From a virus, in the IMG/VR virus record IMGVR_UViG_3300035696_000017, positions 32,001 to 96,000 of that record: 64,000 bases of DNA; one strand, written 5' to 3'. The notes under the pieces were generated by a model that ran no database searches, was not told where the DNA came from, and was given only the letters and a program-made list of their open reading frames with translations. Shown here in pieces: positions 5,348-35,388 of this stretch (position 1 is the first letter of the stretch; each line of letters starts with the position of its first letter). The translations under genes were made by a program, and so were the position numbers.

Positions 5348-5893
5348 TCAGGCATCAGGTGCCTTTGGTGGAGTCTCGCCGCCTTGTGGGGACGAACTAT
5401 TTGCACCATCTGACGAGGTGCAGAGCTTCCAGGGCACCCCTGCCTTGACCACGCGGTCGAGCATGTCAGCCGTCCCGCGCGAGTCTTGGATGTTGTTGTG
5501 GAAGGCAAGGCACAGGTCGATGGGCTCTTCGGGCTTGTTCTCCACATCCAACATCTGTTGGTTGCGGATCGGACCCGCGGCTTTCTTGTGCTTCACCCAG
5601 TCGGCCGGGTAGGGCCTGACCTCAAACCGCAACGCTTCAGCGACTGCGGCGCAGATGATGTCTGCACCCCTGCACGCTCCGTGCACGAGTATGGTGCCAG
5701 GCCTATAACCCTTCAACTCTTCGACGACCCGAGTGATGTCTGACCACTCGCGGTCACCGGTGACCAGGATCTTGTGGACGTACTTCTCCGCGGGCAGCTT
5801 CCGGCGTTCTTCCGGATCGCGTTGCGTGTAGTAGCGCCGGTCAGATTTGGTCCGCCTGATGTCGCCCGTTCGTCGCCGTGGTTCGTCTGCCAT
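5348..5893 (-). CDS. SLOG-family (DUF2493/YspA-like) protein
   Basis: ILVTGDREW, LVHGACRGAD, ADWVKHKKAAGPIRNQQML, SRGTADM. Confidence 0.85.
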   Translation of the reverse strand: MADEPRRRTGDIRRTKSDRRYYTQRDPEERRKLPAEKYVHKILVTGDREWSDITRVVEELKGYRPGTILVHGACRGADIICAAVAEALRFEVRPYPADWVKHKKAAGPIRNQQMLDVENKPEEPIDLCLAFHNNIQDSRGTADMLDRVVKAGVPWKLCTSSDGANSSSPQGGETPPKAPDA

Positions 5894-6565
5894 CAGTCCC
5901 AGTCACCATTGTACCACCTCGACAGCCGGCTTTTTACACCCGTCCGGTGATCGGTGACCTGGTCGTCTTGCGTACGATACGTCCGCACCTTGTCGCCTCG
6001 TTGGCCGGTGCCGACCTGCTGCTTGCGTTCAGCTTCCTTTGCAAGACGCTGGCGTTCACGTTCGGCATCGTACAGCCTGGCCGCCATGACCTTCATAGCC
6101 AGGGCCTTGTTCTGGCTCTGGCTCCGCTCGTTGTCGATGCGGACCTGCAACCCCGTCGCCTTGTGGGTGACGATGACGCAGGACTCGGTCTTGTTGCGGT
6201 TCTGCCCGCCGGGACCCGAGCCCCGTGCGGTGGCGATGTCAACGTCCTGGTACGTCAGCTGCTTGCCGACGACGGTGTCAGGATCGAAGACGGCGACAGT
6301 CACCGTTGACGTCTGGACCCGTCCCCGCTTCTCAGTGGGAGGGATCCGCTGCCATCGGTGACCACCGCTCTCGTGCTGGAATGTCTGCTTGGCGCCCGTG
6401 CCTGAGAAGGCGACGGTGACCATGCCCGGTCGCTCGTCGATCAGCTCAGACTCAAAGACCCCTCCGCGACGCCACGTTGGCGTACGCACGGAGCTGTTCC
6501 TTGACCAGCAGCTTTGCGTCGTCGCCGCCCTCGGCGGCTCGGATCTCGATGATGACCGTTTCCAT
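5893..6565 (-). CDS. class I peptide chain release factor lacking domain 1, expressed via +1 programmed frameshift at 6457-6452 (about 223 aa)
   Basis: Frame 0 from ATG 6565: METVIIEIRAAEGGDDAKLL..RRGL-TGA; +1 frame continues ESELIDERPG..HRWQRIPPTEKRGRVQTS..SGPGGQNRNK..RSQSQNK..VRTY..VTDHR. Confidence 0.9.
6451..6466 (-). promoter_or_regulatory. RF2-type +1 frameshift cassette (internal SD GGAGG, 3-nt spacer, CTT TGA)
   Basis: Minus strand CGGAGG GGT CTT TGA G; same layout as bacterial prfB (AGGGGG TAT CTT TGA C). Confidence 0.88.
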
Positions 6566-7905: not shown

Positions 7906-7982
7906 TGGTCTCCCCAGCAGGACTCGAACCCGCAATCTCCACGTTCGAAGCGTGGCGTCGTATCCATTGGAACCATGGGGAG
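7906..7982 (-). tRNA. tRNA-Arg(TCG)
   Basis: Cloverleaf, loop CTTCGAA, CCA encoded. Confidence 0.9.
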
Positions 7983-7988
7983 GTCGAG

Positions 7989-8339
7989 GTGGAGGACCGG
8001 TAAGCCGGGTTCTGTCGTTGGACGATCATTCCTCTGGGATGCGTGTTACCACGCACCTCAAGCAGCAACCCGGAAGCATCGGCCGAGCAGACCTCAAACG
8101 CTTCCTGTTTGCCTTGCTACGGATGGGGTTTGCCACAAGGGACTGTCACCAGCCCTGTCGGGGTCTCTTACACCTCGGTTTCGCCCTTACCTGAGCGAGG
8201 GGCGAACCCCAAGCCATCGGCGGTCTGTTTTCTGTTGCACTGTTCCGTCGCGTTACCGCGCCTGGCCGTTAGCCAGCATCCTGCTCTGTGTAGCCCGGAC
8301 TTTCCTCTGCATGGGTGCAGCGATCGTCTGGTCTTCCAC
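7989..8339 (-). ncRNA. rnpB: RNase P RNA, bacterial A-type
   Basis: Conserved GAGGAAAGTCCGGGC, AGTGCAACAGAAA and AACAGAACCCGGCTTA segments; P1 helix GTGGAAGACC/GGTCCTCCAC. Confidence 0.95.
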
Positions 8340-8425
8340 GGTGCCAACGACAGGAGTCGAACCTGCCCGGGCTTGCGCCCATGAGCTTCTGAGGCTCACG
8401 TGTCTACCAAATCCACCACGTTGGC
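8340..8425 (-). tRNA. tRNA-Leu(CAG)
   Basis: Type II cloverleaf, loop CTCAGAA. Confidence 0.93.
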
Positions 8426-16168: not shown

Positions 16169-16786
16169 TGTTCAGCCCTTCGCTGCGAGGATGCAGCCTC
16201 CGATGTTGCCCAGGATGAGGAAGACGACCATGCTCCATCCCATGAAGGCCCAGGACGGCGAGTGGATCGCCATGCACCAAGCCACGATGAAGAGGCCCCA
16301 GAAGAACATTGCCCCCATGGACCCGACCATGCTGCCGACTACGTACTTGAACCCCTTTGGGAATAAGAGCCAAAGGCCGATGCAGGCACCCGCTGTCCAG
16401 AGCAACTCCATTTGTACATCCTACCAGGACTAGGCCGCGGCTTGCACCCGGATCTTGCGACCACGATTGATGGCATTCCCGAGGCATTCGACTGAGCCAC
16501 AGTGGCAGTCGAAGTGTTGGATGTCGTGAGTGTAGCCCTCGCGGTTCGCTTGCGCGTGCTTTACCGCCTCTTCCCAGCGAATGTGTCGCATCCGAGACTG
16601 GGGCATGAAGGCCCGACCACAGCGACTGATGTGCATGTGCCGACGGTCGCGTTGTCGGAGCCACTTCGCTGGCGTCTTTCGCTTACGTTCCATGTTTTCC
16701 TCAGCGCCGGGTGGTGGATGCGATCCACTCTTCGAGCCTTCTGGACGTCTCCAGGGACCCACCCTTCGGGGCCTACCAAGCGTTCG

Positions 16787-16857
16787 TGCGACGTATGGGA
16801 TTCGGACCCATGTCTCCGGGCCAACGCCCGGTGTCCTGTCCGCTAGACGAATGTCGC
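16787..16857 (-). tRNA. tRNA-Glu-like gene with aberrant anticodon loop (no assignable anticodon)
   Basis: Glu-type D arm and acceptor; anticodon arm CCGGGC-GTTG-GCCCGG. Confidence 0.6.
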
Positions 16858-33169: not shown

Positions 33170-33183
33170 ATGTGTTGTCGAGG

Positions 33184-33252
33184 TCGCTCCGACTGGACTC
33201 GAACCAGTGGCTCCCGCTCCATGGTAACGGGTGTCCGCCGAGATGCGGAGCG
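33184..33252 (-). tRNA. atypical tRNA-like gene (CAT) with vestigial D arm
   Basis: Acceptor CGCTCCG/CGGAGCG-A, arm CCCGTT-ACCATGG-AGCGGG, T arm. Confidence 0.55.
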
Positions 33253-33254
33253 AT

Positions 33255-33353
33255 CGTCACGTCGAACGGAATCGAACCGTTGCTCGTAGTAGCAGCCGCG
33301 AGCCTTTCACAGGATTCTGTGTTTTTCTACGACCTTTCCTCGAACGACGTGAC
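33255..33353 (-). ncRNA. tRNA-like RNA without D stem and with a branched arm replacing the anticodon arm
   Basis: GTCACGTCG/CGACGTGAC stem, T arm AACGG-TTCGATT-CCGTT, helix TCGTAG/CTACGA. Confidence 0.6.
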
Positions 33354-33609: not shown

Positions 33610-33685
33610 TGGTGGAGCTCACGGGGATCGAACCCGTCACCTCCTGCTTGCAAGGCAGGCGCTCTCCCAAATGAGCTAGAGCCCC
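33610..33685 (-). tRNA. tRNA-Ala(TGC)
   Basis: G3-U70, loop CTTGCAA, CCA. Confidence 0.96.
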
Positions 33686-33972: not shown

Positions 33973-34311
33973 TCACAGCTTGCCCTTGTGGTTCATGCCG
34001 AGGCCGGCTTCGTGGACCTTAGTGAACTTGACGTTGGGAGTGCGCTTCTGGAAACCAAGCTGGCAAGACTTGCCAACCATCATGCCAGAATTGACCCACC
34101 ACATCTGACGATACTCTTCACGGTCAGCCTCGGAATCGAACTTGAGAATGGTGACACCAGCAGCTTTACCGTCAGCCGACTGAAGGCCAAGGTACTTGGG
34201 AACCGACTCTGAAGAACAATCAGGACAACAGGTTATGAGCCCGCCGACGCGGCGTTTCTCAGGTGACATCGGGTCGTACTCGCAATTGCAAACAATGCAG
34301 GTTCGCTCCAT
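33973..34311 (-). CDS. Cys-rich hypothetical protein
   Basis: CIVC..CPDC; class A promoter upstream. Confidence 0.7.
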   Translation of the reverse strand: MERTCIVCNCEYDPMSPEKRRVGGLITCCPDCSSESVPKYLGLQSADGKAAGVTILKFDSEADREEYRQMWWVNSGMMVGKSCQLGFQKRTPNVKFTKVHEAGLGMNHKGKL

Positions 34312-34352: not shown

Positions 34353-34429
34353 TGGAGCTGGAGGGAGTCGAACCCTCAGTCACTCAGGTTCCATTGTCGG
34401 CTTTCCTGTGCGACTCGCCTTTCAGCCCC
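34353..34429 (-). ncRNA. mini-tmRNA-like RNA (tRNA-like domain only, Ala identity)
   Basis: GGGGCTG/CAGCTCC-A acceptor with G3-U70, unpaired D loop AAAGGCGA, P2-like helices GTCGC/GTGAC and CAGG/CCTG, T arm GAGGG-TTCGACT-CCCTC. Confidence 0.75.
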
Positions 34430-34439
34430 GTGTTTTCAG

Positions 34440-34512
34440 TGGAGCACGCGGGACTCGAACCCGCCACCTCAACGTTGCGAACGTTGCGCTCTCCCAGATG
34501 AGCTAGTGCCCC
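34440..34512 (-). tRNA. tRNA-Ala(CGC)
   Basis: G3-U70, loop TTCGCAA. Confidence 0.94.
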
Positions 34513-34589: not shown

Positions 34590-34590
34590 G

Positions 34591-34663
34591 TGGAGCTAGC
34601 GGGATTCGAACCCGCCACCTCTTCGATGCCATCGAAGCGCTCTCCCGAATGAGCTATAGCCCC
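34591..34663 (-). tRNA. tRNA-Ala(GGC)
   Basis: G3-U70, loop ATGGCAT. Confidence 0.94.
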
Positions 34664-35287: not shown

Positions 35288-35317
35288 TGGGATCGTGACC
35301 GTGGTTACTTGCAACGG

Positions 35318-35388
35318 AGCCCCCGCTTGGAGTCAAACCAAGACCTTCGGGCCGCAAGGCCCGACGCTCTGCACTGAGCTACGGGGGC
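35318..35388 (-). tRNA. tRNA-like gene with sealed anticodon loop
   Basis: Normal acceptor/D/T arms; TCGGGCC-TTGC-GGCCCGA. Confidence 0.6.

Follow-up and report, generated by a model that had tools for sequence, protein, structure and literature searches.

Message-less tmRNA encoded by a phage is a known kind of molecule, published for one phage, mycobacteriophage DS6A (PMC4131195, PMC11915505). The DS6A RNA is entered as 'TLD only' on the tmRNA Website (tmID 11587; Hudson, Lau & Williams 2014, PMC4131195), and a 2025 database holds nine 'standard, no CDS' sequences in all (PMC11915505). A molecule similar to the DS6A RNA strongly inhibits tmRNA in both chargeable and non-chargeable form, perhaps through titration of SmpB (PMC4131195), and expression of the DS6A form in E. 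coli inhibits the tmRNA of that bacterium (PMC11915505). Coding-sequence-less tmRNAs also are present in organelles, namely jakobid and other mitochondria and the plastids of Mallomonadaceae, where their conservation goes along with that of SmpB and they are believed to remain of use in dealing with broken mRNAs (PMC11915505).

The locus described here lies in a 64,000-nt stretch of an IMG/VR virus record; the whole of this stretch is referred to as the window. Since the record comprises 114 kb at an estimated completeness of 31%, its source is probably a jumbo phage. The gene, of 77 nt, was located at window 34353-34429 on the minus strand, among tRNA-Ala genes. This conserved phage gene very probably encodes a mini-tmRNA without a coding sequence, of the type known from mycobacteriophage DS6A. 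In all likelihood the RNA is made up of tmRNA's tRNA-like domain plus helix 2a, an A-rich bulge between helices 2a and 2b, and a 2-bp helix 2b stub; we are equally confident that it has no pseudoknots, tag reading frame or stop codon. The original prediction had described a tmRNA tRNA-like domain with a vestigial five-codon tag. For the window the outcome chiefly corrects that prediction: a real gene of a known kind is present, the tag is not real, and the novelty that was implied was overstated, as RNAs of this kind have been published (PMC4131195, PMC11915505).

The window RNA and the DS6A RNA (JN698994, 28478-28557) are both phage-encoded, approximately 80 nt in length and without a reading frame. 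In both, the acceptor stem carries G3-U70 and A73, the D-loop has GG but no stem, and the T arm is accompanied by a single helix-2 hairpin, in which an A-rich bulge is followed by a small GC stub. The element falls within the definition of a DS6A-type coding-sequence-less phage tmRNA (PMC4131195) and, judged by the model match given below, it is homologous to the DS6A RNA. The two differ in that DS6A retains a canonical helix 2a base of the GGUCGAC...GCAC type, which the window copy lacks, and in the apical stub, which is CCG-CACG-CGG in DS6A and CC-GACAAU-GG in the window. The DS6A phage has a genome of 60 kb in which this RNA is the sole tmRNA-model match, indicating that neither a tRNA array nor a full tmRNA is present there, whereas the window family resides in the tRNA arrays of phages of 130-340 kb that also have a full tmRNA.

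The organellar coding-sequence-less tmRNAs (PMC11915505) likewise consist of little beyond the tRNA-like domain and have been kept although they are unable to direct tagging; the mitochondrial forms come from permuted two-piece genes ('permuted, no CDS') of an organelle, whereas the mini-tmRNA belongs to phages. With standard tmRNA (RF00023; for example, that of the Streptomyces phage NootNoot) the mini-tmRNA shares the tRNA-like domain, the alanine identity set, helix 2a and the 3-nt purine bulge leading to helix 2b, but it is without pseudoknots 1-4, the resume codon context, the tag frame, the stop and the degron, and it measures 77 nt compared to 267-420 nt. Like tRNA-Ala, it has the G3-U70 and A73 identity elements and a T arm, lies in the same gene neighbourhood and is probably processed by the same route; unlike tRNA-Ala, it has no D stem, anticodon arm or anticodon. 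Covariation support for such an RNA, its accidental reading frame and the interpretation of its loop as a 2a/2b bulge plus stub were not found in print, nor were its co-occurrence with full tmRNA and its missing annotation in BE-cluster records.

Fold, family and descent of the RNA

The RNA is the exact reverse complement of window 34353-34429 and reads GGGGCUG-AAAGGCGA-GUCGC-A-CAGG-AAAGCCGACAAUGGAA-CCUG-A-GUGAC-U-GAGGG-UUCGACU-CCCUC-CAGCUCC-A; no CCA is encoded, and C-A-G follows. The minimum-free-energy structure from RNAfold had an energy of -33.5 kcal/mol (z = -3.0), which was equalled by none of 200 shuffled sequences. G3-U70, an unpaired D loop and a helix in place of the anticodon arm were all present, as had been claimed, and pseudoknot segments were absent from the fold.

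All parts of the RNA are on the minus strand. The 7-bp acceptor stem, which includes G3-U70, is formed by the 5' strand GGGGCUG (nt 1-7; window 34423-34429) and the 3' strand CAGCUCC, which carries U70 and is followed by the discriminator A (34353-34360). In the 5' strand G1, G2 and G3 were invariant in 25 of 25 homologues and positions 4-7 covaried with 70-73; on the opposite side U70, C71, C72 and A73 (tRNA numbering) were invariant in the same 25. The 7-nt D-loop AAAGGCG (nt 8-14; 34416-34422), with its conserved GG, is unpaired, and a D stem was seen in no member of the family. Next comes a helix of 5+4 bp with one A/A mismatch and a 16-nt loop, comprising the helix 2a 5' strand AGUCGCACAGG (nt 15-25; 34405-34415), the apical element AAAGCCGACAAUGGAA (nt 26-41; 34389-34404) and the helix 2a 3' strand CCUGAGUGACU (nt 42-52; 34378-34388); all 11 of the modelled helix 2a pairs change on both sides somewhere in the family. 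The T arm, GAGGG-UUCGACU-CCCUC (nt 53-69; 34361-34377), is perfectly paired, was paired in 100% of cells across the family and has covariation in three of its five pairs. The window RNA has both the tRNA-like T loop and the stemless D-loop with GG; a T arm with such a loop and a reduced, stemless D-loop with GG are described for tmRNA's tRNA-like domain (PMC3968760).

Homologues were numerous. A sensitive blastn search of GenBank phages matched 84 records, of which 82 were from Streptomyces BE-cluster phages, and further relatives were obtained when IMG/VR and JGI metagenomes were scanned for a pattern based on the loop and GGTTCGA. In total 25 distinct homologues of 77-80 nt were collected from Streptomyces BE-cluster phages, jumbo-phage contigs and soil metagenome contigs. 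Among 185,579 bacterial and archaeal species genomes there were 20 pattern matches, none of which was a family member, and the family with this exact loop appears to be confined to phages. Many tRNA-rich phages have the coding-sequence-less form, and among the phage contigs of IMG/VR it is widespread. It has escaped annotation: the match was unannotated in all 40 of the matches listed from the 84 GenBank records (for example, MF347636.1 84341-84420), even though more than 80 Streptomyces BE-cluster genomes match. Annotation based on ARAGORN misses the mini-tmRNA, as does tRNAscan-SE, which is why genome announcements count 'one tmRNA'.

A covariance model, R1, was built from thirteen members of 77 nt, with DS6A left out. 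It scored members at 43-98 bits (94.6 bits for the window copy) and tRNAs at no more than 34 bits, and it found exactly one copy per contig. In the model-based alignment standard pairs occupied 90.9% of cells, compared to 66.5% after shuffling of the columns and no more than 52% after sliding of the partners. Covariation among homologues, which the original prediction had proposed as a check, was evident, with both sides changing in 18 of the 23 pairs over the 25 homologues. RNAalifold independently predicted the acceptor stem, the helix-2 core, the T arm and a 2-bp CC/GG stem in the loop. G1-C72, G2-C71, G3-U70 and A73 were invariant (25/25) although these positions were not part of the search pattern; a CCA was encoded only in L157, a metagenome contig, and in L188. 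These patterns show a structured RNA under purifying selection, with its structure and alanine identity strongly selected, and a 77-base gene that is real and conserved.

The relation to tmRNA was clearest in four members with a loop identical to that of the window (L188, 67.9 bits; L175, 62.3; L180, 61.5; L187, 52.4), all of which exceeded the 47-bit gathering threshold of the Rfam tmRNA model. These four retain the sequence GGnUUCGAC...GGAC, which is in upper case in the Rfam consensus and forms tandem G-A pairs at the base of helix 2a. In the window copy GGCGAGUCGC...GUGACU stands at this site, so that the canonical UUCGAC of the 5' strand AGUCGCACAGG is replaced, the base of helix 2a is an ordinary Watson-Crick helix (GUCGC/GUGAC) and RF00023 deletes the corresponding columns; the canonical UUCGAC/GGAC base is lost in the BE-phage copies too. 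The Infernal-type tmRNA search that had been suggested as a further check accordingly gave a divided answer, in that the four members passed and the window copy, at 25.7-34.2 bits, did not. RF00023 nevertheless ranked the window element first in the 114-kb record (34.2 bits), ahead of three tRNA-Ala genes at 22-28 bits. R1, in turn, matched the published DS6A 'TLD only' tmRNA from end to end (35.7 bits, E = 2e-8, model positions 1-77). The scores of 52-68 bits, the match of R1 to DS6A and the invariant alanine set uphold the description of the element as a tmRNA tRNA-like domain without a message, and show that the mini-tmRNA derives from tmRNA and not from tRNA-Ala.

Mitochondrial tmRNA families gave no listed match at E <= 10. 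That the element and the upstream tRNA-Ala make up a two-piece (permuted) tmRNA, in which the acceptor piece would lie upstream of the coding one, was rejected, because RF04321, RF01850 and their relatives gave just partial matches of 13-18 bits that spanned the T arm of the neighbouring tRNA-Ala.

These data also bear on whether the element might be a decaying, functionless duplicate of a tRNA-Ala or tmRNA gene; a decayed tRNA-Ala had been named as the finding that would overturn the original prediction. The position of the element between tRNA-Ala genes and its being missed by tRNA finders are what such a duplicate would show. Against this stand the compensatory changes in 18 of 23 pairs, which extend from Streptomyces siphoviruses to jumbo phages, the presence of one copy per genome at a syntenic site, and the score of 14.5 bits with the Rfam tRNA model (RF00005; threshold 29), with no call from ARAGORN, compared to first rank in the record with the tmRNA model. 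Decay was considered to have almost no probability and is effectively refuted by the covariation.

The apical loop

The supposed tag occupies the apical element, where the window copy reads GCC GAC AAU GGA ACC UGA (A-D-N-G-T-stop); the UGA that closes this apparent frame lies in the helix 2a 3' strand. An in-frame stop at this point (codon 6) was found in the window copy only, the other 24 copies being open to the 3' end, and the five-codon ORF was rejected because the stop occurs in just 1 of 25 copies. A scan of IMG/VR phage contigs for synonymous codons (GCN GAY AAY GG) gave no variant in this context.

The apical 14-nt sequence was identical in the 25 members despite their diverged stems, but the identity of AAAGCCGACAAUGG is partly an ascertainment effect, as the family was searched with that motif. 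A scan that escaped this bias was carried out on IMG/VR using the T arm and the 3' acceptor strand only. It returned tRNAs, full tmRNAs and at least 10 further tmRNA-like RNAs of 76-81 nt with other apical sequences. At least seven such sister mini-tmRNAs (76-84 nt; L309, L345, L336, L321, L246, L280 and L263) passed the Rfam tmRNA cut-off. In these sisters and in DS6A the helix is capped by an A-rich bulge of 3-5 nt and then by a short hairpin with a lineage-specific stem (for example, CCG/CGG, CCA/UGG, CCC/GGG or GCCG/CGGC). At the site of the 'tag' the sisters have a covarying stub hairpin of 3-4 bp after an AAA bulge, with ACC or other non-alanine triplets, and in the Rfam tmRNA consensus helices 2a and 2b are separated at the equivalent site by a 3-nt bulge, 'GAa'. 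On the strength of the sister hairpins and this consensus bulge, the window loop most likely represents the 2a/2b bulge (AAA), a 2-bp helix 2b stub (CC/GG) and a GACAAU cap, and not codons.

Literal translation of the loop was considered highly improbable. It would have the ribosome resume at GCC, add A-D-N-G-T and stop, leaving a short tail free of a degron. The frame does exist in the window copy, and GCC GAC AA is like the tag starts of phage tmRNAs (GCC GAC AAC AAC in L157; GCC AAC GAC AAC GGC in the jumbo phage G002), a likeness that is real but is no more than a resemblance. Twenty-four of the 25 copies, however, run to the 3' end without a stop, and every wobble position is fixed. The U-A that lies 4-5 nt before the resume codon in co-resident full tmRNAs is absent, sister families have other triplets at the site, and the 'codons' would lie in a loop that a 9-11 bp helix of the tRNA-like body closes off. 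The claim of a vestigial tag was thus not sustained, given the single stop, the lack of synonymous variants and the sister stub hairpins; the tag is a coincidence of one copy. Survival of the loop as a resume-codon region that had been retained was rejected as well, on account of the covarying sister stub with its different triplets, the fit of AAA to the 2a/2b bulge and the missing U-A 4-5 nt upstream.

The constancy of the apical sequence raises another reading, in which the hairpin would be the working part of the molecule. Here a tRNA-shaped scaffold would present AAA-CC-GACAAU-GG to a conserved host or phage factor other than SmpB, for example as a decoy for a defence nuclease or as a sponge for a tRNA-handling enzyme, and the tmRNA ancestry would be history only. 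The 14-nt identity, the absence of synonymous or other loop variants from phage contigs, and the decay of the canonical motif by the SmpB site in most members, the window copy included, are consistent with this. We regard it as quite unlikely, since the invariance is in part an artefact of the motif-based search, sister mini-tmRNAs carry quite different hairpins on the same frame, and a natural C31->U variant was present in a peat run (a single low-depth contig). In addition, no site complementary (antisense) to the loop was found in the window except the locus itself, and no conserved neighbouring gene was seen beside the copies of relatives.

The tRNA array and co-resident full-length tmRNAs

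The mini-tmRNA is embedded in a run of 48 tRNA genes of the window, as called by ARAGORN, that share its strand. ARAGORN placed tRNA-Ala(CGC) at 34439-34512 (minus), 9 nt upstream of the mini-tmRNA, tRNA-Ala(GGC) at 34590-34663 and tRNA-Ala(UGC) at 33610-33685. The mini-tmRNA and the upstream tRNA-Ala(CGC) are probably carried on one precursor transcript. In the jumbo-phage lineage comprising the window phage, L057/G002, L196 and L169, the order tRNA-Ala(GGC), tRNA-Ala(CGC), mini-tmRNA, tRNA-Ala(UGC) was fixed, with an extra tRNA-Trp between the first two in the window alone, while in BE phages the mini-tmRNA was located between tRNA-Val and tRNA-Leu. A 112-aa ORF downstream of the gene (33976-34311, minus) had no match in a Pfam search, and no counterpart of it lay beside the copies of relatives, either in L016, where tRNAs are on both sides, or in the BE phages.

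Three calls of 'tRNA-???' with 2-nt 'anticodons' (window 16786-16857, 33182-33273 and 35316-35388, all minus) represent odd tRNA-like genes among the 48. In the array of L169, a close relative of the window phage, ARAGORN called a tRNA with the anticodon UUA, a reader of the UAA stop (L169:3292-3366). The tRNA array of L187, a contig that also carries a mini-tmRNA, has a match to the Y RNA-like family YrlA on the minus strand (L187:1699-1806; 35.1 bits, below the cut-off of 69).

Other translation-related genes were identified in the window. A complete bacterial class A RNase P RNA (window 7985-8339, minus; 276.6 bits, model positions 1-367) is flanked by tRNA-Arg(tcg) at 7906-7982 and tRNA-Leu(cag) at 8340-8425, so that the phage carries the ribozyme that would mature its own tRNA array. 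A short class I release factor (5896-6489 plus 6452-6565, minus) scored 43 bits for PCRF and 98.6 bits for RF-1 and has the GGQ motif; its N-terminal 37 codons are in another frame, an arrangement compatible with a prfB-like programmed frameshift. Adjoining it is a YspA/cpYpsA-related protein of the SLOG family (PF10686, 46.7 bits; 5351-5893, minus). The 114-kb, incomplete record had no CCA-adding enzyme and no peptidyl-tRNA hydrolase. Neither the window record nor five related phage records yielded an SmpB gene, so that any SmpB partner of the RNA would be that of the host.

The mini-tmRNA usually is found beside a normal phage tmRNA. All three of the complete relatives that have the mini-tmRNA also have, elsewhere in the genome, a normal tmRNA with a tag ending in a ...LAA degron: that of NootNoot is 267 nt, annotated, and has the tag ANSKFAFALAA, that of G003 (133 kb, with terminal repeats) has the tag ANSNVASAYALAA, and that of G002 (340 kb, 99% complete) has the tag ANDNGALPLRLAA. 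Two further contigs carry both RNAs close together; in L157 a full tmRNA (L157:519-933) lies approximately 45 nt upstream of the mini-tmRNA, and in L178 one that was missed by ARAGORN (L178:2008-2429) lies a few hundred nt upstream. No full-length tmRNA was found in the window record, from which two thirds of the genome is missing (114 kb, approximately 31% complete). Mycobacteriophage Bxz1 has a full tmRNA and no mini-tmRNA.

The window stretch was found in peat metagenomes, as DNA runs, and there was no RNA run among the listed holders of the stretch. Contigs from four DNA runs yielded only a close variant with a different spacer. In one DNA run, X3, a single low-depth contig held a near-identical copy, the other holders being peat and moss metagenomes. 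This copy had C31->U in the loop (window 34399), where pairing with G38 is still possible, and C73->G in the acceptor (window 34357), and was separated by 47 nt from the upstream tRNA-Ala, compared to 8-9 nt in the window.

Possible roles in trans-translation

The role that we prefer, tentatively and at close to an even chance at best, is that of an alanine-charged competitor in the SmpB-dependent trans-translation of the host. The mini-tmRNA would be transcribed together with the tRNA array, its 5' end would be cut by RNase P, for which the phage encodes its own RNA, and its 3' end would be trimmed and extended by CCA, to which the host AlaRS would attach alanine. Bound by host SmpB and EF-Tu, it would compete with full-length tmRNA, both that of the host and that of the phage, not only for SmpB but also for ribosomes that have stalled on broken mRNA with an empty A site. 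It might then take the nascent chain, but would supply neither a tag nor a stop codon. The net effect would be that degron tagging during infection is damped or retuned, not that rescue is completed. We infer the whole of this course, from RNase P processing, 3' maturation and CCA addition to charging by AlaRS and the interaction with SmpB and EF-Tu; the distance of 9 nt from a tRNA and the phage RNase P RNA (276.6 bits) support the processing steps.

The charging signals are conserved although they would be needless for titration alone, and for this reason the RNA would be expected to reach the ribosome and to compete for SmpB and stalled ribosomes; titration as the sole function would leave the conservation of alanine identity unexplained. 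A fragment consisting of the tRNA-like domain, together with SmpB, reportedly supports early steps of trans-translation in vitro (Shimizu and Ueda, 2006). In ordinary tmRNA the canonical UUCGAC/GGAC base of helix 2a adjoins the elbow that SmpB binds; as the window copy lacks this base, SmpB binding is less certain for it than for members of the L188 type. Competition as a general inhibitor also would hit the phage's own tmRNA in NootNoot, G003 and G002, and it leaves the invariant GACAAU apical loop without a role.

The selected charging that is implied by the invariant alanine identity set could also serve productive rescue without tagging. In that case the alanyl-mini-tmRNA with SmpB would accept the nascent chain and displace the broken mRNA, and an ArfB-like factor, a release factor or peptidyl-tRNA hydrolase would then hydrolyse the peptidyl-mini-tmRNA with no need of a stop codon, freeing the ribosome and leaving a protein with one additional alanine and no degron. 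The investment of the phage in translation (48 tRNAs, RNase P RNA and a release factor that has both a PCRF and an RF-1 domain) is in keeping with this, as is the retention alongside SmpB of coding-sequence-less mitochondrial and plastid tmRNAs, thought to be helpful with broken mRNAs (PMC11915505). We judge tag-free rescue unlikely: the 114 kb yielded no peptidyl-tRNA hydrolase, the phage release factor, with its PCRF domain for codon reading, looks dependent on a stop codon, relatives already own a full tmRNA, and the sole experiment on an RNA of this type gave inhibition (PMC11915505).

Co-occurrence of the two RNAs in every complete genome examined, their tandem arrangement in L157 and the fixed AAA-CC-GACAAU-GG hairpin would also fit a further reading, which we consider improbable, in which the mini-tmRNA is a dedicated partner of the phage's full-length tmRNA and not a mere inhibitor. 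The hairpin would then make a specific contact with the ribosome or SmpB, and the alanine-charged, message-less RNA would take a distinct first step on stalled ribosomes, which might be the ejection of cleaved mRNA or the addition of a single alanine. If true, this would amount to a two-RNA scheme of rescue or tagging for conditions in which host defences cut tRNAs and mRNAs.

With respect to the competitor role that we prefer, and to the others, the mini-tmRNA offers a natural minimal substrate for the study of SmpB-dependent ribosome entry, and the culturable BE1 phages on Streptomyces provide a tractable system for the role of message-less tmRNA in infection.

Among the full-length tmRNAs that accompany the mini-tmRNA, those of L157 and L178 were approximately 415-420 nt in length, and the tag of the former was long and without LAA (ADNNDALVSEIDFDAIEAYANEGVLV).
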